From contig CAWHXY010000007.1 in the NCBI GenBank assembly GCA_963833575.1, forward strand, positions 544,001-608,000: a stretch of 64,000 nucleotides of DNA, given 5' to 3'. Positions 10,000-46,318 of the stretch are shown piece by piece. Position 1 is the stretch's first letter. Every line of letters begins with the position of its first letter. A program made the translations under genes and the position numbers. The notes under the pieces were generated by a model. That model was not told where the DNA came from and ran no database searches. It worked only from the letters and a program-made list of their open reading frames with translations. The DNA comes from Candidatus Bathyarchaeota archaeon (lineage in GTDB: Archaea > Thermoproteota > Bathyarchaeia > Bathyarchaeales > Bathycorpusculaceae).

Positions 10000-10140
10000 T
10001 GCAAATACGTCTAAAAATAATACCCCAGAAATGTTGAATTAAATTTTGATCCCACCAACCCAACCAACTACTTTTACCTCAGCGGTTTAAGGCATAAGCG
10101 GGAGACACGGTTCAGTAAATACTCAGCAGATTAACCATAT

Positions 10141-10168
10141 AGGGTATAGTCGGAATCGAGTATACGCC
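10141..10168 (+). repeat. 28-bp dif-like site, copy B
   Basis: agggtatagtc-ggaatc-gagtatacgcc; arms are 8/11 inverted complements around a 6-bp spacer. Confidence 0.7.
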
Positions 10169-10238
10169 ATTTTTTGCTAATCCTGAATTGATTCTTAATT
10201 CATAATCCTTATTTGAGAATCTTCCAAACATATGAAAT

Positions 10239-10595
10239 ATGAAAAAGCTTTCGAAGTCTTTATTCATGAACGTGCCTGTAGAATCCTGTTATGACATAAT
10301 AAGGACAACTGACCCTTCTCGGTACGTAAGCGATTTAGTTAGTTTTTGGTCACTAGGTTTTAGCAAGGAAATTCCAAATGCTCTGTTGGTTTTTGAATGC
10401 AGAGACAATCAAGGGCGATATGTTATTACTGAGATTTCATTTCTTAAAACAACTGATTCCTCGTGCGAACTCACATTAAATTTCTCTTATGACCATATGG
10501 ATGGAAGATATTCGGGGTTAATTCTTACTCAAATAATTAATGGGTACACACTATTAGACCATGCATACAACATTGGAAAATCTACGAAAGGATGA
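10239..10595 (+). CDS. Hypothetical protein (possible SRPBCC-like fold)
   Basis: 118-aa ORF; strand-helix...strands-helix pattern. Confidence 0.6.
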   Translation: MKKLSKSLFMNVPVESCYDIIRTTDPSRYVSDLVSFWSLGFSKEIPNALLVFECRDNQGRYVITEISFLKTTDSSCELTLNFSYDHMDGRYSGLILTQIINGYTLLDHAYNIGKSTKG

Positions 10596-10698
10596 AGAAG
10601 TTTTAATCCACCACCTCATCGTGGCTCAATTACTGATTACTAATTCCTAAAGCAGAAATAGCGTTAAATCAATTCGTCAATAGAACTAGGCGAACTGC

Positions 10699-11082
10699 TT
10701 GAGTGATGTAAAGAAACGTGGAAAGCAAATAATCCATTGTGAAGTGCAAGACGGAAAAGACTGCCCTCACCAAAATCGCCTTGTCTACGACGAGGCTTTC
10801 TATAAAGAAGTTAACGGAGATTGCTTTGATTATGAAAATGAAATGGGAAAGCAAATTTTGTTACATTTGCAAGATCTTACAAAGAGAGTTTATCGCAAAT
10901 GTCCAAATTGTGGGTCATTAATTCCAGAGATTGAGTTACACACTGAAGACAGGATATTCACTCTGACTTGCACGAAAATAGCGAATAGGAAAGGGAAAGT
11001 GATAGCTGAAACTGAATACGAACAGTTGAAAAAATATTTGCATAGCCATAACAAAAATCTACGCACTAAGAAAACAAACTGA
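10699..11082 (+). CDS. Hypothetical Cys-containing (zinc-ribbon-like) protein
   Basis: 127-aa ORF with CPNCG and additional Cys. Confidence 0.55.
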   Translation: MSDVKKRGKQIIHCEVQDGKDCPHQNRLVYDEAFYKEVNGDCFDYENEMGKQILLHLQDLTKRVYRKCPNCGSLIPEIELHTEDRIFTLTCTKIANRKGKVIAETEYEQLKKYLHSHNKNLRTKKTN

Positions 11083-12774: not shown

Positions 12775-13407
12775 TTAGTCAATTAGGAGTAGAGCGAAAG
12801 TTTCAGGGTTTTTAATGAAAGGTAAAGTGAATTTTATTCCGGCTTTTTCTGCTGTAGCTTTAACGTTTACGCCGACACCTTCTTCAGAATAACGCTTTGC
12901 CATTGGATGAATGCAGAGTCCTTTTTCCACATTACATTTTTCGCATAATGTGCATGATCCTGAGACCAGACCCGTTGCGAGAAGGTAGCCTTTTGCAGCT
13001 GCTATTTTTTCGAGCTGAATCACGGTTTCACGGAGTTTTTGAGCGTCAATTTTCCAGGCTGACCAAAAATTGTCAACTTTGGATTTTATCTCTTTAGGAA
13101 TAGTTGGGTCTTCAGTTTTTGCGAGGTATTTTATAAGTTCTGGTTCTGCTTGGGCTTGAGATTCAAATTTCATGAAGAGAGCGTAATGGTATTCGCTGAC
13201 GATTTTTCTAAATTTCTCAGGTGTAGGTGCGTAAGGTGGGCAAGCTAATGTTTTTCCATATTTTTCGCAGCCTAGTTGACATTTGAAAACAACACGCTCT
13301 TCGATAACAATTTTTTCCACAGGAATTATCTTTGCATCTGCTGCTCCCAATTCTAAAGCGTGTTTTCGAAGAAAATCAAAAGAACTCAACTCATTATTTT
13401 GTGTCAT
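12775..13407 (-). CDS. DUF2284-family Cys-rich metal-binding protein
   Basis: KC-x3-C..YG..CPP and GSCTLCEKC..CIHP..RYSEEGVGVNV motifs. Confidence 0.85.
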   Translation of the reverse strand: MTQNNELSSFDFLRKHALELGAADAKIIPVEKIVIEERVVFKCQLGCEKYGKTLACPPYAPTPEKFRKIVSEYHYALFMKFESQAQAEPELIKYLAKTEDPTIPKEIKSKVDNFWSAWKIDAQKLRETVIQLEKIAAAKGYLLATGLVSGSCTLCEKCNVEKGLCIHPMAKRYSEEGVGVNVKATAEKAGIKFTLPFIKNPETFALLLID

Positions 13408-13419
13408 AAAATTCAGGCT

Positions 13420-14529
13420 TCAAGTGGTTTTTGTTTTTGATTTTTTTGGTTGGTAGACGCATGCTGGGTCTTGATTTAATGGGTCTTTTGAATAGATGAA
13501 TGCTCGAGCTCGGCAGCCGCCACAGATAGGTTTGAATTCGCAGACGCCGCATTTTCCTTTTAATTTGGTACGGTCTGCAAGTATCTTGATTTTTTCAGAT
13601 GTGCGCATTCGATCTGTGATTTGTTCAATACTGTCTGTTTTAATGTCACCGAACTCCAGGTTGAGGGGGGCGCAGGCGTAGGCTTTGCCATCTTCCAGAA
13701 TCTCGAGCCACTCATTTTTTACAAGGTTGTCACACATGCTGCAGGTGCTTCGCAGTAGCCGTTCAGGCTCTTTTGTTTTTAAAATTCGGTTATTGAACAT
13801 TTCATAGGGAACAATTAGAATTTTGTCTTTTACTTTTTTGTTCATTTCGTAGACTTCTTTAAGTTGTTTTTCTTTTTGCTGTGGCGTTGGTTCTAGTGGA
13901 CCTAGTAGTTTGAGTTGGTTTTCAACGTCTATGGGTTGGGGAATTAGGGAAGCTAAATGGAAACCGCGTGCTCCTAACTCAATTGCGAGTTCGATTAAAG
14001 CGGGAACTTCGTCAATAACGTATTTTGTGTTGATTACGCTGATGGCAAATTGAATACCGAATTTTTTGCATAGCTTTGCGGCATTTATGCTGTCCTCAAA
14101 GGCAGCTTCACCTCGCAGTTTAGCATCGGTTTCTTTGAGCCCTGAGAGGCAGACAATAGCTTTGCAATTGGCGGCGGCAAGTTCTTTTGCGACCTTTCGA
14201 TCAAAGTGCCAACCAGTAACTTTCACGTAAGGAGACAGACCTAATTCGGCAGCATAACGAATGAGCTCTATGAAGTCTTTTCGCATTAATGGCTCGCCAG
14301 TCCAGCCTGCACCGGTAATGAATAGGTTGTCTACTCCGAAATCTGCGGCTTTCTTAAGCATCGACTTTGCTTCAGCGGTGGTTAGTTCATTTGGAAGAGG
14401 TTTTCCATCTGAAAGACAAAATGCGTGTTTAACTGGATAGGCTCTGGTGCATGACCAAATAAAATGGTCTAATTTTCTGCCATGTTTTTCGGCGCCAAAA
14501 ATTAATTTAGATTCTGACTGCGAAGACAT
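13420..14529 (-). CDS. Radical-SAM/SPASM-fold protein (AhbD/NirJ/PqqE-like) lacking the CxxxCxxC motif
   Basis: W..TRA-Y-PVK-H-AF-C in place of C-xxx-C-xx-C; ELTTAEA, GEPLMR; intact SPASM CGVCEFKPICGGCRARA..DPAC. Confidence 0.85.
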   Translation of the reverse strand: MSSQSESKLIFGAEKHGRKLDHFIWSCTRAYPVKHAFCLSDGKPLPNELTTAEAKSMLKKAADFGVDNLFITGAGWTGEPLMRKDFIELIRYAAELGLSPYVKVTGWHFDRKVAKELAAANCKAIVCLSGLKETDAKLRGEAAFEDSINAAKLCKKFGIQFAISVINTKYVIDEVPALIELAIELGARGFHLASLIPQPIDVENQLKLLGPLEPTPQQKEKQLKEVYEMNKKVKDKILIVPYEMFNNRILKTKEPERLLRSTCSMCDNLVKNEWLEILEDGKAYACAPLNLEFGDIKTDSIEQITDRMRTSEKIKILADRTKLKGKCGVCEFKPICGGCRARAFIYSKDPLNQDPACVYQPKKSKTKTT

Positions 14530-15885
14530 TTAGTTTGCTCCCTTTCCAAGAGAATGTTGAGTGATTTCTTTTGTGATGTTTTTGGTGTGACCTGGAATCT
14601 CCATTTTTCCGCTTTTGTTAGGTTTCATCAAATCGTGAGTTGCGTTAACTAGTGTAGGAAGTTCAGACGGAGATTTGATGAATATAGCACCTTGTTTTCT
14701 CATCTCCTCCATCAGAGCTGTTGCTTTGCCAGCGGTAAAATCTCGACTTTCTAGGGGCACTTCATCGATGACGTAAGTTCGGATCCCCATTTTTACGGCC
14801 TCAAGTGCCGATTCCAAATTTGAGAGATTGCCGTACCCAAACGGAACAGAAGAGACAACAACAATAGCAGCTTTACTTATCATTTTTAGATTCGCATGTT
14901 TTGTCTCCTCAGTTATCGGCGAAAAAGGTGCCTCATTCACGTTAGGAATCTTGAGAAGCTCGGCGGTCTCATAGTCGGTGTCTAACATGTTAAGTACACC
15001 AGCTGTCACTTCATAGCCTTCGTCGACCAATGCCTTCATTACGACAGTTCCCGTTCCTGCTCCACAGATGACGTGGATCGAACAGTTACGCGGTTTTGAA
15101 GGTTTGTCAGGTGACAACGGAATAATATAGAGTGAATTCGTGACCAAGCTTTTTTTGACTAAGGCATCAACTTGGAATACGCTTTTTATGTTCTGGCTTG
15201 TCAACACTTCATCTAAAGTTCCTGCTGCAAAGACCGTTTTTCCCTTAAGCAATAGAGCTGAGCTACAGTAGCGTGCAGCCAAATTCAAGTCATGGATAAC
15301 CGCTAAAACGATCATGTGTTCTTTCAGGCACAGTTCCTTGACTAAGTCCATGATTTCTAACTGATTGACCATGTCCAAATGTGTCAATGGCTCATCGAGC
15401 AAGAGCACTTGAGGTTCTTGAGCTAAGGCACGAGCAATGACCACCCGTTGTTTTTCTCCACCGCTTAATTCATTTATAGGCCTGTTTGCGAGCTGCCAAG
15501 TGTTAGTCCGTTCCATTGCTTTCTTAACGATAGCCAGATCCTTTTCGGATTCCATCTGGAACCGATTCATATGCGGATTGCGACCCATTAAAACAATATC
15601 TAAAGCTGTAAAACTGAAGCCTATTGTGCTTTCCTGAGGAACAACAGCCATGTGTTTAGCGAGGTCGACACTTTTTATGTTGTAAATATCCTTCTTATCT
15701 AAAAGTATAGTTCCTTTGTAGGGTTTTAACGTTCGACTAATGCTTTTAAGCAAAGTCGTTTTTCCTGAACCGTTAGGGCCAAGGATGCCAACGAAGTCGC
15801 CCTCTTTAACTTGTAGGCTGACGCTATCCAAAATAGTTACTGAACCATAGCGGCACTCAATTCCATCCACGCTAAGTAACACCAA
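14530..15885 (-). CDS. btuD: Cobalamin/iron-chelate ABC transporter ATPase with extra C-terminal domain
   Basis: GPNGSGKT, LSGGEKQR, LLLDEP, HDLNLA; about 190-aa C-terminal extension starting IHVICGAGTG. Confidence 0.88.
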   Translation of the reverse strand: MVLLSVDGIECRYGSVTILDSVSLQVKEGDFVGILGPNGSGKTTLLKSISRTLKPYKGTILLDKKDIYNIKSVDLAKHMAVVPQESTIGFSFTALDIVLMGRNPHMNRFQMESEKDLAIVKKAMERTNTWQLANRPINELSGGEKQRVVIARALAQEPQVLLLDEPLTHLDMVNQLEIMDLVKELCLKEHMIVLAVIHDLNLAARYCSSALLLKGKTVFAAGTLDEVLTSQNIKSVFQVDALVKKSLVTNSLYIIPLSPDKPSKPRNCSIHVICGAGTGTVVMKALVDEGYEVTAGVLNMLDTDYETAELLKIPNVNEAPFSPITEETKHANLKMISKAAIVVVSSVPFGYGNLSNLESALEAVKMGIRTYVIDEVPLESRDFTAGKATALMEEMRKQGAIFIKSPSELPTLVNATHDLMKPNKSGKMEIPGHTKNITKEITQHSLGKGAN

Positions 15886-15902: not shown

Positions 15903-16991
15903 TTACAGTGAATAGCTTGTCTTTCTTTTCCTTAGCAAGTAGATAAAGAATGGGGTTCCAGCTAAAGCAGTTATGACGCCAACTGGCAACTCTGAAGCTC
16001 CTGTTGCAACTCGGGCTAAAGAATCACAGAGAATCAGGAATATGGCTCCCACAATTGCTGAAGTAGGCAGTAGAATTCGATGGTCAGGTCCGATTACGAG
16101 CCGTGTCATATGCGGAATGATTAGTCCAACGAATCCTATGACTCCGCTTATCGAAACTGCCGCCGCAGTTATTAAAGAACTTACAAGCAGAAGTATTTGG
16201 CGCACTCTCTCCGTGTTTACGCCTAAATGTTGGGCTGTGTCATCTCCCATCGCAAGCATGTTAAGATCTTTAGTGAAGAAATACGCTATGAAAATTCCTA
16301 CAAAAACAAATGGAAAAACCGCGTAAATATCTATCCAAGTGATGTTTGTAAATCCACCAGCTATCCACGCTACAATGCCTATTAGCGCTTTTCCAGATCG
16401 CAGTTCAAAAACTGTCTGAACAGCTAAAATAAATATATTTACAACAATACCAGAAAGAAGCAAGGTAGTTACCGGCACTTTGTTTCCAACTCGCGACATA
16501 AAATAAACCAGAAAGACCGTCAAGACGGCTCCAACAAAAGCGACAGCCTGAAACAGCCCCAGCCCCCAAACAGAGAGAGCAAGAGAACCAGAATATATAA
16601 CAGCCAAAGTATATCCCAAAGAAGCCCCGGCTGAAGCCCCTAAAAGATAAGAGTCAGCCATTGGATTTCTGAAGACGCCTTGATACATGACTCCGGCAGC
16701 AGCTAATCCAGCACCAACCAAGGCACCTGCTATTATTCGAGGAAGCCGAATTTGAAGAATTATGGTATCGTAATTATGCTTAAGAACGACTGCTGAGTAT
16801 TTTATGGACCCCCCAAGAAAAGGAATCTGCTTACCAAGTATGGTTAATATATCAGAAAAATTGATGGGGGCGTACCCTATGTTGAGGCAAAAAAAAGCGA
16901 CACCGAAGAATGCAAGAATTAGCAATAATAAGATTAGTTTCCATCTTGAGGAACGTTTTGAATATTTGAATTCTGCATTATCCGCAGTCAT
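15903..16991 (-). CDS. btuC: Cobalamin ABC transporter permease (FecCD/BtuC family)
   Basis: IRLPRI, QGVFRNPMAD, GVIGFVGLIIPH, ELPVGVIT. Confidence 0.9.
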   Translation of the reverse strand: MTADNAEFKYSKRSSRWKLILLLLILAFFGVAFFCLNIGYAPINFSDILTILGKQIPFLGGSIKYSAVVLKHNYDTIILQIRLPRIIAGALVGAGLAAAGVMYQGVFRNPMADSYLLGASAGASLGYTLAVIYSGSLALSVWGLGLFQAVAFVGAVLTVFLVYFMSRVGNKVPVTTLLLSGIVVNIFILAVQTVFELRSGKALIGIVAWIAGGFTNITWIDIYAVFPFVFVGIFIAYFFTKDLNMLAMGDDTAQHLGVNTERVRQILLLVSSLITAAAVSISGVIGFVGLIIPHMTRLVIGPDHRILLPTSAIVGAIFLILCDSLARVATGASELPVGVITALAGTPFFIYLLRKRKTSYSL

Positions 16992-17009: not shown

Positions 17010-17993
17010 TTAAGAGGTTGAATTAAAGAGTGTTGGATAGAATGCTTTTGCGGCTGCTGCGATTTGGTCGCCGATTCTTGGTCCTGCTTCAGCAAAGAGG
17101 TCTCCGTCGACTACGATTATTCGATTGTTTTGCACTGCGCTAATTGAGCTCCAGCCTGGCCTATCTTTTACTTGCTCGACGCTTCCGTAGAATGGTGTGT
17201 CTCCTGGGTTTGCCATGTCTGTAGGTAGCAAAATAACGTCAGGGTTCTTTGCGACAATGGTTTCTGAACTTACGGTGGGGTATTGTTGGGTTTCGTTTTC
17301 GAAAATGTTTTGTCCTCCAGCTTTCTCAATTACATCGTTTATGAATGATGTTGAGCCCGCTGACATTAATGGAGGAGTCCATACTTCATAGTAGACTAGT
17401 GGTTTGGTTAGGTTGGCGGCTGCTATCTTGGCAGTTATGGTACTGATTTGGGTGTTTATGGAGTTGATAAGTGTGGTTGCGTTTTGGTTTGCGCCTGTAG
17501 CTTGGCCTACCATGGTGATGTCTTTGAGTACGCCGTTAACGTCATTGGGATTTAAGACGAGCACTTTTTCGCCTAGGCTTCGCATGGTGACGACGTCTGG
17601 GTCATTTATTGGTGTGGCTAGGATTAAGTCTGGGTTGAGTGAGGCTATGGTTTCTTTGTTTGGGGTTGAGAAGCCTCCGACACTAGTCATGTTGCCGGCG
17701 GCTATCCATGCGGTGAAGTTGTAGGGGTAGTGGTCGTAGTCTGTTACGCCGACGACTTTGTCGCCAACGCCTACAGCGAATAGGATTTGTGTGTTGCTTG
17801 GCGCAAGTGAAATTATTCTCTGGGGAGTTGATGTTATGTTGGTTGCGTAGCCTTCGTCATCTACTACGGTGATGGTTTTTGAAGTGGATGTTTGGTTTGA
17901 TTGCCCGTTATGGTATGCGTAAATAAAAGCTCCTGAAGCAATTGCCAGTATTATTATTACGGTAACAACATAGATGAGGGTTTTATTTGCCAT
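17010..17993 (-). CDS. btuF: Cobalamin-binding protein of ABC transporter
   Basis: PQRIISLAPSNT, LNPDLIL, NPDVI, AVQNNRI, GPRI; N-terminal membrane anchor; adjacent to cbiZ. Confidence 0.85.
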   Translation of the reverse strand: MANKTLIYVVTVIIILAIASGAFIYAYHNGQSNQTSTSKTITVVDDEGYATNITSTPQRIISLAPSNTQILFAVGVGDKVVGVTDYDHYPYNFTAWIAAGNMTSVGGFSTPNKETIASLNPDLILATPINDPDVVTMRSLGEKVLVLNPNDVNGVLKDITMVGQATGANQNATTLINSINTQISTITAKIAAANLTKPLVYYEVWTPPLMSAGSTSFINDVIEKAGGQNIFENETQQYPTVSSETIVAKNPDVILLPTDMANPGDTPFYGSVEQVKDRPGWSSISAVQNNRIIVVDGDLFAEAGPRIGDQIAAAAKAFYPTLFNSTS

Positions 17994-18261: not shown

Positions 18262-19368
18262 TTGAAACTTAACGTGAAAATAAGCGGCATCACAGCTGAA
18301 GTTAACGATAACATCCTTACTATTTGGTCTAAAAACTCTTTGAAGACCCTAAGTTCGGCTATTCTGAATGGGGGTCTGCAAGAGGCAAATGGAATAATTA
18401 ACGTTCAAGTTCCTGAAGGGTGCGGAAGCGACAAGTCCGATGTACACTGGAGCCCTGAAAAATTCTTGAACGAGGAAGCGCAACGGCTACAGTTTCCAGA
18501 GAATAAAGTGGTCGGGCTGATGACCGCTGCCAAAATGCAGAATATAGCAGTATACAGTGAGACATACGACAAAACAGTGCTGACTGCTTTAGTTACGGCT
18601 GGCTCAACCGTGGCAGTTACGGCAGGTGAACCTGCAGCATCAAAAAACGGTGATAAAATAGAACGTGTCGGTACAATAAACATTATTTTGTTAGTTGATG
18701 GAAACTTAACAGAAGGCTGTATGGTCGAAGCCATCAAAACATTGACAGAAGCTAAGACGGTTGCCTTGCGAGAGCTTGACATTAGAAGCCAGTTTTCTGG
18801 AGATATTGCTACTGGAACTTTAACAGACAGTATTGTAGTTGGCTGTACCAAAAAAGGAGAGCCCATACAATACGCCGGGACTTTCACATTGCTAGGCGAG
18901 CTAATTGCCAAATGTGTGCGGAAAGCGGTAAAAGAAGCCATGTATAAACAAGAAAACCTCACATCAAATAGAACTGTAAAAGAAAGATTGGGCGAGAGAG
19001 GGATATCATCTGAATTTATCATATCACTCGCATCCGAGCCAAACGAGAAACTTGATGACTCTGAGAAACTTCAAAAACAGATTGACTTAATTCTGTCGGA
19101 CACGAAAATAGCGCCACTTCTCATGGCTGCCCTCAGGCTAGATGATGATATAGAAAAAGGCTTGATCCCTAAAGACCACGTGAACAACATAGACAATGTT
19201 ACATTTGAAGAAATTATATTGTCAACTCTAAAGTGCGCCCTATACGACGAAAAAAATCTATATGACTATGTGGGAAAAAACCAGGTCAACAAGAACCGTC
19301 GTTTAGGCCCAACCACAAAATGCTTCTTAATGGCTATCCTAAAAAAAGCTTGCTCAAACATCAGTTAA
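18262..19368 (+). CDS. cbiZ: Adenosylcobinamide amidohydrolase CbiZ with degenerate CobZ-like C-terminal domain
   Basis: LSSAILNGG, GLMTAA, GTINIIL, TEAKT, ATGTLTDS, YAGTFT motifs. Confidence 0.88.
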   Translation: MKLNVKISGITAEVNDNILTIWSKNSLKTLSSAILNGGLQEANGIINVQVPEGCGSDKSDVHWSPEKFLNEEAQRLQFPENKVVGLMTAAKMQNIAVYSETYDKTVLTALVTAGSTVAVTAGEPAASKNGDKIERVGTINIILLVDGNLTEGCMVEAIKTLTEAKTVALRELDIRSQFSGDIATGTLTDSIVVGCTKKGEPIQYAGTFTLLGELIAKCVRKAVKEAMYKQENLTSNRTVKERLGERGISSEFIISLASEPNEKLDDSEKLQKQIDLILSDTKIAPLLMAALRLDDDIEKGLIPKDHVNNIDNVTFEEIILSTLKCALYDEKNLYDYVGKNQVNKNRRLGPTTKCFLMAILKKACSNIS

Positions 19369-19427: not shown

Positions 19428-20110
19428 ATGGATCTGTCTGTAATCCTTATTCTTCTAACTGGATTAGCATTGGGATTAGGGCATTCTTTGGATCCTGATC
19501 ATATTGTTGCAGTTTCCGCTCTTCTGTGCAATAGTCGGAGTCTAAGAAAATCAATCGCCTCTGCAACGGTTTGGGGAGTAGGGCATTCTTCAGTTTCTTT
19601 GTAGCGGGATTTTGTGTGCTGATTCTAAGAGTTTCAATTCCAGAAAACGTAGTCACCCTGTTCGAGTGTGCAGCCGGAGTTATGCTGATAATCTTGGGCA
19701 TTCTTGTGATTAGACCACTTATCTTAGATCGAATTAAAACTTCTCAACCAGGAGTTCAAATAGAAAAACTCTCCCACGACCATAATCATAATGTGTCTGA
19801 TTTGAAAGAAGGGCACACGCATATTCACAAATCGGCATTAGCGGGGCTTCTTCAGGGATTGGGCGGTAGTGCGGCCTTAATGTTAGTTGTATTAACGACT
19901 GTTAATTCAGTTGTGACTGGTTTAGCCTTTATTTTGGTTTTTGGAGTTGGTGTGATATTAGGTATGATAGGCATTTCCTGCGTTGTAGGCTCAATCATAG
20001 CATATACAGCATCAAACTTAGAAAGAGTTCACAAAATAATTAAAGCCATAACAGGATCAGTTAGCATAATTGTGGGAATACTTATTATTTTGTACACTTT
20101 AATTTATTAG
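19428..20110 (+). pseudogene. Ni/Co permease (NiCoT/UreH-like), frameshifted
   Basis: ATG 19428 gives ..LGLGHSLDPDHIVAV..WGVGHSS, then TAG at 19602; the remaining TM helices, His-rich loop and GLLQGLGGSAA are in another frame. Confidence 0.8.
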
Positions 20111-40573: not shown

Positions 40574-40824
40574 TCAAATTTCACAGCGCCCAATAATCTT
40601 AAAGCATCTAAGAGCCCTTCACAGTAAGCAACTGAGGTTAGGCTTGTTTCAAGCTTGCCTTTAGCCTTATAATACTTTGCGTCCTCCAAATAGTCAGCAG
40701 CCCAACGCAAAATATTGCCTATCGCGTCGTCAGTTAGGCTAATGGGTGTTTTTGTTCGCTCAAGTTCTTTTATCACTTTTTCTGCAGAATCGATATATTT
40801 TGCCGCAAGAGTTTCAAGGTTCAC
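40537..40824 (-). CDS. DUF357-family protein
   Basis: YLEDAKYY..YCEGLLDALRLLG; sits between dph5 and ribL. Confidence 0.85.
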   Translation of the reverse strand: MNLETLAAKYIDSAEKVIKELERTKTPISLTDDAIGNILRWAADYLEDAKYYKAKGKLETSLTSVAYCEGLLDALRLLGAVKFEWPTNQERKPLS

Positions 40825-41618
40825 TTAGCAAGCCTCCTAAACTCTGCTGGTGCACCCCCAAAAGCGATTAACGAATCAATTTCCATAAAATGCAGATCGC
40901 CTGGAAAAATTAAGCTGTAGGGTGGCTCCCCGAAGTTAAATGCAGCTAAGTCTTTTAGAAAGTCTGCTTTGATTGTTGGATTGTCGCTACCTGCTCGTGC
41001 AATTCCAACTGCAGGAGTACTCGACGTTATGACGCCTTGATTTTTCTTTTTCTCGACCTCAAGCAGCATTACGATGGCTTGGTCGATGCTTAGGAAGTGT
41101 TTCTCGGTTGCTTTCAAATCTAAAAGGCAAAGAGTATGCAATCCCAGCGTTTTGTTTTGTGCGATAACGTTGTAGGGTGTTTCCGAAAAGTTTTCTGGAA
41201 ATGGGACGGTAACTGTTTTTCCAAATTTGTAATTATGCAGTCCTGAGAGGCTAACAATTGCTGAAATTATTGATGTGCCATGAATAATTCGAGTTTTTAT
41301 TCCCTGATTTTCAGCATCAATACGCAATGTCACATGGGTTGTTGCAATAAACGGATCTCCCGGAACTAGAAACAATGTCTTCCCTTTTTTTGCGGCTTCA
41401 AGAATCATACTGCCGTTTTCTTCTTCAAGATCATTTCTTGAAACTAATTTTATTTTTTTCCCGCATAAGCCTTCAAAACGTTGTAGGCTAAAGTCGGACA
41501 TGAGGCTCGTGTAGAGTTCAATAAAAACGCTGTCTGCGTTTTTGACTTCTTCTAAACCTTTAACGCTTATGCCTTTTTCATCGTTTAATCCTAAGCCTAC
41601 GAAGACAAGTTCATTCAA
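40821..41618 (-). CDS. dph5: Diphthine synthase
   Basis: FVGLGL, ELYTS, GDPFIATTH, YKFGKT, GLHTLCLLD, LHFME. Confidence 0.95.
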   Translation of the reverse strand: MNELVFVGLGLNDEKGISVKGLEEVKNADSVFIELYTSLMSDFSLQRFEGLCGKKIKLVSRNDLEEENGSMILEAAKKGKTLFLVPGDPFIATTHVTLRIDAENQGIKTRIIHGTSIISAIVSLSGLHNYKFGKTVTVPFPENFSETPYNVIAQNKTLGLHTLCLLDLKATEKHFLSIDQAIVMLLEVEKKKNQGVITSSTPAVGIARAGSDNPTIKADFLKDLAAFNFGEPPYSLIFPGDLHFMEIDSLIAFGGAPAEFRRLAK

Positions 41619-44208: not shown

Positions 44209-45339
44209 ATGAAGCCCATAGAAAACTTGGCTAGAGACACCATAAGGAACCTTAAGCCGTGCATTCATGGCGGAGAGGTTTTGGATGCTGCAGACAAAAG
44301 CGGGCTTAAACGGGATGAAATTTTGGATTTTAGTTCAAGCGTCAATCCTTTAGGTCCATCAAAAAAAGCGCTTGAGGCAGCCAAAAAAGCTTTCAGCCAA
44401 ATTTCAGCCTACCCTGATTCAAATTCAAATGAGTTACGGGAGGCTATTGCAAGTCACTTCACATCATTAACCAAAGACAACGTTATTATGGGAAATGGCT
44501 CTACGGAACTCATGTATTTGTTCGCTGAAACTTTCCTGAACAAAGGCGACAAAGCCCTTATTCCGACACCCACATTTGGAGAATATGAAGGCGCGGTCAA
44601 GAAAGCAGGAGAAACACCCAAATTTATAAAGCTAAACAAAAGTTTTAACATTGAAAAATCAACATTTGCAAATGAAATAGCCGGAGCCAAAATTGTCTTC
44701 TTATGCAACCCAAATAATCCAACAAGTATGCTCATTCCATCAGAAACCCTAACAGAAATAATTGAGAATGCTTTAGAGCAAAATAGCCTCATTTTTCTTG
44801 ATGAAGATTTTTTGGAGTTTGTAGAAAACGAAAAAGCACTTTCAATGATTGGCAAAATCAACAAGTATCCAAACTTGTTTATCCTGAGGTCTTTCACCAA
44901 AATTTTTGGTTTAACCGGCTTGCGCATTGGCTACGGAATCGCCAACGATGAAATAATTAATTTGTTATCATGTGCCAAGATTCCTTGGAACGTTAACTGT
45001 TTAGCGCAAGCGGCTGCTGTTGCTGCATTAAAAGATGAGGATCATCTGAAGATAACACGGGAACTTATCAAAAAAGAGAAAGCAAAACTATTAAGCAAAC
45101 TTGAAGAAATCAGGTCATTCAAGATTTTTCCTTCAGACGCCAACTTTTTCTTTATAGATATACGCAAATCTGGCCTGACAGCTGCTCAATTGGCAAGCAA
45201 ACTTTTGAGCGAGGGCATTTTAATTCGAGACTGTACCTCTTTTAGAGGACTCGACACATACTTTGTTCGTATAGCCGTCAAAACTCAGGCGGAGAATGAA
45301 CGGTTGATTGAGATTTTTAAGCGCATAGTAAAGACCTAA
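44209..45339 (+). CDS. cobD: Threonine-phosphate decarboxylase (HisC/CobD family PLP enzyme)
   Basis: HGG, DFSSSVNPLG, CNPNNPT, RSFTKIFGLTGLRIGY, IRDC; next to cbiB. Confidence 0.85.
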   Translation: MKPIENLARDTIRNLKPCIHGGEVLDAADKSGLKRDEILDFSSSVNPLGPSKKALEAAKKAFSQISAYPDSNSNELREAIASHFTSLTKDNVIMGNGSTELMYLFAETFLNKGDKALIPTPTFGEYEGAVKKAGETPKFIKLNKSFNIEKSTFANEIAGAKIVFLCNPNNPTSMLIPSETLTEIIENALEQNSLIFLDEDFLEFVENEKALSMIGKINKYPNLFILRSFTKIFGLTGLRIGYGIANDEIINLLSCAKIPWNVNCLAQAAAVAALKDEDHLKITRELIKKEKAKLLSKLEEIRSFKIFPSDANFFFIDIRKSGLTAAQLASKLLSEGILIRDCTSFRGLDTYFVRIAVKTQAENERLIEIFKRIVKT

Positions 45340-45358: not shown

Positions 45359-46318
45359 ATGTTTGCTTTTGATCTCTCTTTATTTGTTGATTCCGTGTTG
45401 ATTTTCGTCTTAGCCTTTCTAATTGATGCAGTCCTAGGCGAGTACCCTGACAGAATTCACCCCACAATCGGAATTGGCAAAATAATAGCATATCTTAAGC
45501 CGAAAGCTAAAAATGTTAATCCCCGAATTGAAAAAGCAAACGGCGTACTCTTAGCCATAACCATTATGCTGGTTGTTTCGCTTCCCGTATTTGCCTTGCT
45601 TTTTTGGCTACGAACTTCATTCGGCTCCATACCCTACATTATTGTTGGTGCGATTTTGTTTAAAGCAACTTTTGCAGTCAAAGGCATGGGCCAATATACC
45701 AAACCTATTGCTTCGGCACTCAAAAAGAATGATTTAGTTGAAGCCCGCAAATGGCTGCCCTTTATCGTTAGACGAGATCCAAACACGCTTGGAGAAAAAC
45801 AAATCATTTCCGCTGCAGTAGAATCCATTGCAGAAAGCACGACAGACGGAATAACGGCACCCTTCTTCTTCTTTGCGATTTTCGGTGTTCCTGGTGCCTT
45901 CGCATATCGTGTAATTAATACATTGGATTCAATGGTCGGCTATAAAGATGTTGAAAACAAAAACATCGGCTGGTTCTCCGCAAAACTTGACACCATCACT
46001 AACTACATACCCACCAGACTAACAGGCTATCTGATGGTTGCGGCTGCATTTCTGTTAAGAGAAAACTGGCGTGAGTCATGGCGCATTCTTCATAGAGATA
46101 AAGGAAAAACTATGAGCGTAAACGCAGGCTGGACCATCTCAGCTATGGCTGGAGCCTTAGACACCCAACTGGAAAAGCAAGGTCACTACACTTTAGGTGA
46201 CGACCATGGCATTTCATCAGAACACATTTCAAGAGCTTTGCGGATGATGACGTTAACCGCCGTTCTTTTCGGTATAGTCATAGTTCTACCGATTTTGGCC
46301 TTAAGAGTTAATATCTAA
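45359..46318 (+). CDS. cbiB: Adenosylcobinamide-phosphate synthase
   Basis: GEYP..HP, ESIAESTTDG, YRVINTLDSMVGY, NAGW, MAGAL. Confidence 0.93.
   Translation: MFAFDLSLFVDSVLIFVLAFLIDAVLGEYPDRIHPTIGIGKIIAYLKPKAKNVNPRIEKANGVLLAITIMLVVSLPVFALLFWLRTSFGSIPYIIVGAILFKATFAVKGMGQYTKPIASALKKNDLVEARKWLPFIVRRDPNTLGEKQIISAAVESIAESTTDGITAPFFFFAIFGVPGAFAYRVINTLDSMVGYKDVENKNIGWFSAKLDTITNYIPTRLTGYLMVAAAFLLRENWRESWRILHRDKGKTMSVNAGWTISAMAGALDTQLEKQGHYTLGDDHGISSEHISRALRMMTLTAVLFGIVIVLPILALRVNI

Follow-up and report, generated by a model that had tools for sequence, protein, structure and literature searches.

A radical-SAM/SPASM family without the SAM-cluster cysteines, a probable accessory of corrinoid import operons in archaea and bacteria

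Introduction

AhbC, AhbD and NirJ, which belong to the radical S-adenosylmethionine (SAM) proteins, modify tetrapyrrole side chains. Here we describe a gene related to them in a stretch of 64,000 nucleotides from a Candidatus Bathyarchaeota archaeon (assembly GCA_963833575.1, contig CAWHXY010000007.1, positions 544,001 to 608,000 of the forward strand), which we call the window. This gene occupies fourth place in an operon of five minus-strand genes (btuF, btuC, btuD, the gene itself and a DUF2284 gene; Table 1). We use pSAM for this pseudo-radical-SAM/SPASM family and for its gene, and P0001 for the window member. Like AhbD, AhbC, NirJ and the TIGR04053 proteins, pSAM combines a barrel with a SPASM domain, contains a C-x2-C-x5-C-x2-C auxiliary motif and lies in a tetrapyrrole-related context. 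Unlike them, it has no CxxxCxxC motif and scores far below the cut-offs of their models (395-650 bits), and its context is corrinoid import and salvage, in contrast to the heme or heme d1 synthesis of the AhbD/NirJ-type enzymes.

Most cobamide-using microbes must scavenge cobamides. For anaerobes and archaea little is known about the way from import to reassembly: how the cobalt is reduced, how the upper ligand is taken off and how the corrinoid is handed to the next enzyme. PduS, CobR, CblC/MMACHC and BtuM act on incoming corrinoids ahead of adenosylation, reducing the cobalt or stripping off the upper ligand, and BtuM uses a Cys as cobalt ligand. The folds of these four proteins are unrelated to that of pSAM, and they can be likened to it by proposed function alone.

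Two other precedents have to be considered. The first is TIGR04347, an NCBIfam family of Halobacteria named 'pseudo-SAM/SPASM', a model that was matched by a Haloferax control genome and whose N-terminal half is matched by P0001. However, P0001 reaches only 92.2 bits by hmmscan (71.3 in the genome search) for a cut-off of 525, which is lower than its AhbD score, and since an intact relative, P0132, scores higher (156.7 bits), the match reflects general homology. The second is HemW, a protein with the radical-SAM fold that comes from a tetrapyrrole-modifying ancestor and is reused as a heme chaperone; it is a member of the HemN branch that lacks a SPASM domain and keeps the three Cys, the [4Fe-4S] cluster and SAM, the cluster being needed for heme transfer (PMC10114771). 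HemW thus keeps the SAM cluster, whereas pSAM has lost it and keeps the auxiliary-cluster ligands only.

The adjacency of BtuFCD and CbiZ in Bathy-6 genomes has already been noted, and some B12-synthesis genes have been assigned to the radical-SAM class COG0535 (PMC11697101); a radical-SAM gene without the cluster is not mentioned in the portion of that paper used here. In the literature that we searched, neither the pSAM family nor its link to B12 riboswitches is described, and there is no account of intact radical-SAM/SPASM genes that follow btuD. What was already known is the pseudo-SAM precedent and the BtuFCD-CbiZ loci; the pSAM family and its corrinoid-import context appear to be new.

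Results and Discussion

Fold and cluster loop of the window protein

The pSAM gene of the window is an intact open reading frame (ORF) with an ATG start that follows at once the TAA of the btuD-like ORF (14530-14532). An earlier reading of this DNA, made from its letters alone (the sequence-only reading), had already described a full-length ORF abutting btuD, and it had also described the replacement of CxxxCxxC by YxxxHxxC with an extra Cys upstream; both descriptions are correct. In a phmmer alignment Y31, H35 and C38 align to the three Cys of the CNLSCSFC motif of SkfB (6efn), Tyr31 and His35 being encoded by TAT and CAC (the latter two changes away from TGY), and C27 is an additional Cys upstream of the former cluster Cys. 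P0001 is recognized as a radical-SAM protein by its barrel core, a partial (beta/alpha)6 TIM barrel (PF04055 Radical_SAM, 36.7 bits over residues 37-181; cut-off 29.5), but the CxxxCxxC motif with its three Cys is missing. The SPASM domain, for its part, is recognized above cut-off by both PF13186 (23.1 bits; cut-off 21.5) and TIGR04085 (35 bits; cut-off 27), and the 7- or 8-Cys motif is kept, with C263, C266, C286, C327, C330, C336, C339 and C357.

An AlphaFold2 model built with an alignment of 44 relatives (predicted local distance difference test, pLDDT, 92.2; predicted template-modelling score, pTM, 0.90) gave PqqE (6c8v, E 3e-17) as the best Foldseek match, and SuiB, SkfB and anSME were found as well, so P0001 is predicted to have the classic radical-SAM/SPASM fold. 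The matches to P0001 in the ESM Atlas were generic radical-SAM/SPASM clusters only. From their number and motif, the eight SPASM Cys are predicted to suffice to ligate fully two auxiliary [4Fe-4S] clusters.

A discrete family without a canonical SAM-cleaving cluster

The search of a collection of 5.8 billion proteins returned more than 100 clusters with 50-94% identity to P0001, and the named ones correspond to metagenome-assembled genomes (MAGs) of Bathyarchaeia, Bathyarchaeota or Nitrososphaerales. In an exhaustive search of representatives, the full-length proteins of the family clade had E values from 1e-127 to 6e-70, including an intact sister protein, P0124, at 2e-76, and the next full-length protein beyond the clade had 5e-41. 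This gap marks the pSAM family as discrete.

We aligned 108 full-length pSAM members together with P0124 (109 rows). None of the three canonical cluster Cys is retained in 98 of the 108 members, one is retained in 10, and no member retains two or more. As the three cluster Cys have been lost, the family is predicted to be unable to ligate the SAM-cleaving [4Fe-4S] cluster canonically. This loss, which the sequence-only reading had noticed in P0001, is therefore family-wide, but the Y/H/C pattern of P0001 is not: position 31 is Tyr in 89 of the 109 rows, position 35 is His in 65, Tyr in 31 and Gln in 5, and position 38, a Ser in 101 rows, is Cys in only 5, which makes C38 of the window protein a minority state. 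With His in only 65 rows, the proposal that the new His acts as a ligand is not sustained. What the family has really conserved of the former cluster loop is Cys27, the Cys further upstream, which is kept in 99 rows and lost in 9 of the 108 members.

These counts bear on the possibility that pSAM is still a radical-SAM enzyme, with the SAM-cleaving cluster held by non-canonical ligands such as Cys27 together with Tyr, His or others. The conservation of Cys27 is compatible with it, as are the second loop Cys present in 10 of the 108 members and the retention of G-E-P in the GGE motif (G78 in 107, E79 in 106 and P80 in 108 rows). However, the old loop contains a single Cys in 89 rows and none in 9, Y, E and F alternate at position 31 and H, Y and Q at position 35, and we know of no radical-SAM enzyme that works with one Cys ligand, so we regard a residual radical function as very improbable.

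In contrast to the cluster loop, the SPASM Cys are nearly invariant, in agreement with the retention claimed from P0001: seven of the eight are present in all 109 rows and C266 is Cys in 104. Many invariant or nearly invariant residues also line the face formed by the C-terminal strand ends of the barrel, the side on which the active site usually lies (Y101, K103, G106, W107, D135, R139, N167, T168 and K169, and further P197, Q198, Y227, Y242 and R248), and 39 columns are invariant over 44 members whose identity to P0001 ranges from 38 to 87%.

The ratio of nonsynonymous to synonymous substitution rates (dN/dS), calculated by the Nei-Gojobori method (NG86) for 32 ortholog pairs with 0.05<dS<1.5, ranged from 0.058 to 0.219, with the median at 0.114; the closest pairs of P0001 itself are saturated (dS >2), with ratios near 0.05. 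The low dN/dS and the family-wide conservation show that pSAM is under purifying selection and is not a decaying copy, so the outcome that would have spoken for relaxed selection did not appear and the earlier view of a selected derivative, as opposed to a broken gene, is upheld. A functionless paralog in decay could have been suspected from the loss of the catalytic motif, from a patchy distribution (2 of 201 genomes of the class at E<=1e-60) and from frame breaks in three MAG loci (L018, L019 and L027). Nevertheless, dN/dS values of 0.06-0.22, the invariant columns and the presence of the family in two domains of life with conserved synteny contradict it, and in those three loci the frame breaks hit all the genes, suggesting assembly errors; decay is almost certainly not the explanation.

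Probable origin from a tetrapyrrole-modifying branch

In a tree of 94 sequences, with which a second tree was concordant, the 44 pSAM rows are monophyletic (Shimodaira-Hasegawa-like approximate likelihood ratio test, SH-aLRT, 98), and P0124 is the sister of the pSAM clade, the joint clade having a support of 100. P0124 and nine relatives (66-98% identity) belong, where named, to Candidatus Tectomicrobia MAGs. Nine full-length sister sequences carry the intact motif W-S-C-T-K-x-C-N-F-x-C-x-H-C, in which CxxxCxxC is preceded by the upstream Cys that pSAM, too, has kept; the tenth, P0279, is truncated at its N-terminus and does not cover the motif. Searching metagenome contigs with P0124, we found no locus of the sister clade, the matches being nine further pSAM loci and six weaker radical-SAM matches.

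The sister clade also helps to date the other motif changes that had been taken as a systematic loss of the SAM machinery. The GAGWTGEP, VTG and CLSG sequences are all found in P0001, at sites where the sister clade reads AGVEP, KTNGW and GMSG. Because this intact clade already carries deviations at these sites, they are older than the loss of the cluster and do not represent a systematic dismantling, which the conservation of G-E-P does not support either. The expansion of GGEP is real in the window protein, but the inserted 'AGWT' is confined to one subclade (W76 in 74 of the 109 rows). Overall, 76 positions are conserved in pSAM and sister alike, with Y101, K103, W107, R139, T168, Q198, Y227, Y242 and R248 among them, and 23 positions differ between the two groups though conserved within each.

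The next clade out contains paralogs of the window genome itself (L002, L003 and L004, with 31-33% identity), and the four-Cys motif is present in 55 of the 61 loci of that clade. The best-scoring named families on P0001 were AhbD (TIGR04545, 144.7 bits), TIGR04053 (142.4) and NirJ2 (136.4), well below the equivalog cut-off of 500 for AhbD and the cut-off of 395 for TIGR04053. The intact relatives P0124, P0132 and P0134 score 180-218 bits on TIGR04053, also below its cut-off. For pSAM and its intact relatives alike, AhbD, TIGR04053 and NirJ2 are always the top-scoring models, and no named NCBIfam equivalog scored above its cut-off. By homology, pSAM would descend from the AhbD/NirJ/TIGR04053-like branch of tetrapyrrole-modifying enzymes.

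pSAM accompanies corrinoid importers

We collected 19 pSAM loci on genome contigs (L010-L028) and nine on metagenome contigs (L090-L097 and L102). Genes of the btu type lie beside pSAM in 18 of the 19 genome loci, the exception being L023, and btuF, btuC, btuD or cbiZ adjoin it in eight of the nine metagenome loci, the exception being L102, where the gene runs off the contig end. The order btuF-btuC-btuD-pSAM-DUF2284-cbiZS-DsbD2 is that of the Bathyarchaeia nearest to the window (L010-L019 and L027), and the order btuF-pSAM-(cbiZ)-btuC-btuD is found in Nitrososphaerales MAGs (L020 and L021) and in Chloroflexota or Dehalococcoidia (L024, L025 and L028). The adenosylcobinamide amidohydrolase gene cbiZ adjoins pSAM in many loci, and distant pSAM operons extend into CobD, CbiP/CobQ, CbiB, CobT, CobS and CobA. 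Furthermore, four operons are immediately preceded by a cobalamin riboswitch (RF00174), those of L024 (38.6 bits), L025 (34.3), L090 (38.6) and L102 (40.3), and pSAM is the first gene behind it in L090 and L102; no RF00174 match was found in L093 and L095, two other bacterial-type loci with upstream sequence, nor in the archaeal window. The conserved synteny with btuFCD and cbiZ, together with the cobalamin riboswitches, identifies the transporter as a corrinoid importer and the pSAM family as one of its accessory genes. These markers (cbiZ and the riboswitch) beside a BtuFCD operon are evidence of synteny, not of homology, and they make the corrinoid link stronger than it was when it had been proposed for P0001. 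pSAM is a widespread, selected family of corrinoid import operons, four of which, of bacterial type, lie behind a cobalamin riboswitch.

Some details of individual loci may be recorded here. Frame breaks affect many operon genes at once (btuF, btuC, btuD, pSAM, DUF2284 and cbiZ) in L018, L019, L027 and parts of L012, L013 and L016, and their simultaneity suggests assembly indel errors, which fit better than pseudogenes. A Diphthami_syn_2 gene (PF01902) lies near pSAM in two unrelated loci (L023:90-773 and L025:9523-10206), and the L023 ORF may carry an N-terminal extension of ~115 amino acids.

Small intact activase-like radical-SAM genes (246-295 amino acids) adjoin pSAM in L021 (2527-3414 and 4246-5010) and L025 (4814-5554). 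They lie in cobamide salvage operons, encode Radical_SAM and Fer4_12 domains with CNFxCKGC or CNLSCRAC motifs, and have the activases NrdG, YjjW and PflA as best NCBIfam matches, all below cut-off. Such genes would be the natural partners if pSAM were a non-catalytic subunit, contributing the substrate-binding barrel and the auxiliary clusters to an intact, SAM-cleaving enzyme that would carry out the radical chemistry on the corrinoid. The two copies in L021 and the one in L025 agree with this, as do the intact paralogs of the window genome, at least five radical-SAM/SPASM genes, and the intact relatives that elsewhere occupy the same operon slot, sometimes as tandem pairs. However, when the unmatched ORFs of L020, L021, L023, L024, L025 and L090 were scanned with Pfam, the small genes appeared in two loci only; in the remaining loci the operon genes abut, leaving no room for a further gene, no radical-SAM gene lies beside pSAM in the Bathyarchaeia operons, and no close homolog of the small genes occurs in the window genome, where the best match has 30 bits. 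We consider a dedicated catalytic partner unlikely.

A proposed role in corrinoid salvage

Our favoured reading, to which we assign a probability of about 0.5 as a whole, is that pSAM is a non-radical iron-sulfur (Fe-S) accessory of corrinoid import and salvage which acts as follows. As a cytoplasmic Fe-S protein, pSAM would bind the imported corrinoid in the cavity formerly used for substrate and SAM, with Cys27 as a candidate contact to the cobalt or to a ligand; Cys27 is the best candidate because it survives the loss of the cluster Cys and is common to the intact relatives. The two auxiliary clusters could pass electrons to the corrinoid, so that its cobalt is reduced or its upper ligand taken off ahead of CbiZ and nucleotide-loop assembly; alternatively, pSAM might simply hand the corrinoid to CbiZ and the nucleotide-loop enzymes. 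It would improve salvage without being essential, as sister operons of the same genus do without it. The parts of this reading carry different weight. It is very probable that pSAM is a selected, non-radical Fe-S accessory of corrinoid salvage; its specific mechanism as a corrinoid binder or reductase is tentative and, on balance, rather doubtful; and it seems unlikely that pSAM will prove to be, in every particular, the first radical-SAM/SPASM barrel without its radical cluster that is reused as a BtuFCD-coupled corrinoid processor, with Cys27 on the cobalt and the auxiliary clusters reducing or de-ligating it.

A new metal site made up of C27 and the conserved C122 and C154 was also considered and dropped, because in the predicted model C122 and C154 lie at the bottom of the barrel and C27 at its top; in the secondary structure of the model, C122 marks the N-terminal end of strand 123-128, and helix 143-156 has C154 at its C-terminal end.

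Several observations weigh against the proposed role. No classic cobalt-ligand residue is invariant, neither H35 nor C27, and the eight SPASM Cys may be kept merely for the integrity of the fold. No longer form of pSAM fused to a B12-binding or btu domain was found, although this is weak evidence. The CobA gene present in the L025 operon indicates that pSAM is not a simple replacement for CobA. Finally, the distribution of pSAM is irregular. Besides being found in only two genomes of the class sample, it is missing from many loci of its own genus: of the 30 best btuD loci in our sample of 61 genus genomes (which may overlap the named MAGs of the genome-contig loci, so that the two sets are not additive), 13 have btuFCD-pSAM-DUF2284, with DUF2284 after pSAM in all of them, five have btuFCD-DUF2284 without pSAM (L115, L116, L125, L128 and L129), which makes it dispensable there, and 11 have cbiZ or unrelated genes after btuD, with neither pSAM nor DUF2284. 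The last one has an intact four-Cys radical-SAM/SPASM gene (L142:313-1419). pSAM is an optional module, and the slot behind btuD in Bathyarchaeia contains the intact enzyme, the derivative without the cluster, or neither.

This dispensability would also suit a protein that never binds corrinoid and acts as a regulatory or gating accessory, for instance a redox or Fe-S sensor docking on BtuCD. The only universal neighbours of pSAM are btuF, btuC and btuD, and the TAA-ATG junction couples it translationally to btuD, as such a role would have it. However, the position of pSAM is not fixed: it follows btuD in Bathyarchaeia, separates btuF from btuC in the others, and in L090 and L102 comes directly behind the riboswitch. 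The strongly conserved strand-end face, moreover, is common to the intact sister, a sign of a site for a small molecule that was taken over from an enzyme modifying tetrapyrroles. We thus hold a purely regulatory role to be quite unlikely.

For radical-SAM enzymology, pSAM is a natural experiment in which the SAM cluster has been removed and the ligands of both auxiliary clusters and the substrate face have been kept, and it could show what SPASM clusters do alone.

Intact relatives in the same operon slot

Besides the gene in L142, intact four-Cys genes lie directly behind btuF-btuC-btuD in six more loci (L032, L033, L036, L037, L054 and L086), in most of which the match is near 10001-11040. 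Their motif is C-x3-C-x3-C-x2-C. Five of the intact genes behind btuD form a subclade of their own with a support of 99, and some loci contain a second, tandem intact copy, these second copies forming another subclade. The sequence and position of these genes suggest that they encode uncharacterised radical-SAM enzymes tied to corrinoid importers; if pSAM does prove to be a BtuFCD-coupled corrinoid processor, they would be unrecognised enzymes that remodel salvaged corrinoids. Both pSAM and its intact relatives of the same slot are concrete candidates for the steps that corrinoids undergo after import.

Cobamide physiology of the host

The window genome is 94% complete. Neither CbiC nor CbiD was found in it, but ~19 B12-binding domains score above the Pfam cut-off, and CbiB and CobS are each encoded twice. 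With neither of the former two found and so many cobamide-related proteins present, the gene content suggests that the host is a heavy cobamide user dependent on salvage. No adenosyltransferase of the CobA type or of the PduO/EutT type was found in the window genome either, and among the 61 genus genomes the CobA/BtuR type occurs in two and the PduO/EutT type in none. If pSAM does prove to be the BtuFCD-coupled corrinoid processor described above, it would help to fill the unassigned reduction or upper-ligand step in an archaeal genus with known adenosyltransferases in 2 of 61 genomes. The idea that pSAM itself substitutes for the adenosyltransferase was abandoned, given that CobA shares the L025 operon with it and that the gap is genus-wide irrespective of pSAM. 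The scarcity of adenosyltransferases is a possible gap in the pathway, although CbiZ, CbiB, CobS and many B12-binding proteins are present.

Operon neighbours and other features

The features of the operon and its surroundings are collected in Table 1.

Table 1. Features of the pSAM operon and adjoining genes in the window.
Feature	Position in window	Strand	Evidence
pSAM gene (P0001, 369 amino acids); radical-SAM barrel without CxxxCxxC, then complete SPASM domain	13420..14529	-	
Degenerate cluster loop, C27-TRA-Y31-PVK-H35-AF-C38	14416..14451	-	SkfB alignment, family counts, motif patterns
SPASM region, residues 263-357, 8 Cys	13459..13743	-	TIGR04085 match and family counts
BtuF-like substrate-binding protein with N-terminal membrane anchor	17010..17993	-	PF01497 Peripla_BP_2, 125.9 bits
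BtuC-like FecCD permease	15903..16991	-	PF01032, 295.5 bits
BtuD-like ABC ATPase, 451 amino acids; its TAA abuts the pSAM ATG	14530..15885	-	ABC_tran, 122.9 bits
DUF2284 protein, 210 amino acids, last operon gene	12775..13407	-	PF10050, 142.2 bits
CbiZ (adenosylcobinamide amidohydrolase) fused to a CobZ-like tail, CbiS-like, divergent	18262..19368	+	PF01955, 196 bits
His-rich DsbD_2-family membrane protein	19571..20110	+	PF13386, 28.1 bits

The BtuD-like ATPase scores 339.7 bits on NF007082 (corrinoid ABC transporter ATPase), below the cut-off of 537. Its C-terminal extension of ~190 amino acids (window 14530-15090, the last 186 residues) gave no sequence match in Pfam or the PDB; btuD orthologs with the extension occur in 47 of the 61 genus genomes. 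The operons of Bathyarchaeia and Nitrososphaerales have the extension, and those of the Chloroflexota type lack it.

Seven Cys of the DUF2284 protein are invariant in an alignment of 12 orthologs, in the arrangement C43-x3-C47-x8-C56 and C152-x2-C155-x2-C158-x6-C165. As its gene directly follows btuD in the five genus operons without pSAM, DUF2284 is a more constant partner of the transporter than pSAM. Its AlphaFold2 model has a pLDDT of 61.6, with the Cys-rich loops below 50, and the prediction of a complex between pSAM and DUF2284 returned a score of 0.00, which weighs neither way. The papers retrieved by a literature search on DUF2284 name the family without functional data.

The CbiZ fusion scores 144.5 bits on NF038002 (CbiS), below the cut-off of 250, and in L011-L019 and L027 its gene is on the same strand as the operon, directly after DUF2284. 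The DsbD_2 gene downstream of cbiZ is conserved in those same loci, and its product, with His-rich stretches (HDHNHN...HTHIH), may be a metal transporter, for cobalt or nickel. Two cobinamide-salvage genes, encoding a CobD-like aminotransferase (44209-45339) and CbiB (45359-46318), are found 30 kb from the operon, and a gene of the TP_methylase family at 40821-41618. Elsewhere in the window genome, an island of contig C4 (~1,020,000-1,090,000) contains about nine genes with B12-binding domains, mostly ORFs of roughly 470 amino acids, together with the second CbiB, two CobS and three intact paralogs (L003, L004 and L006).

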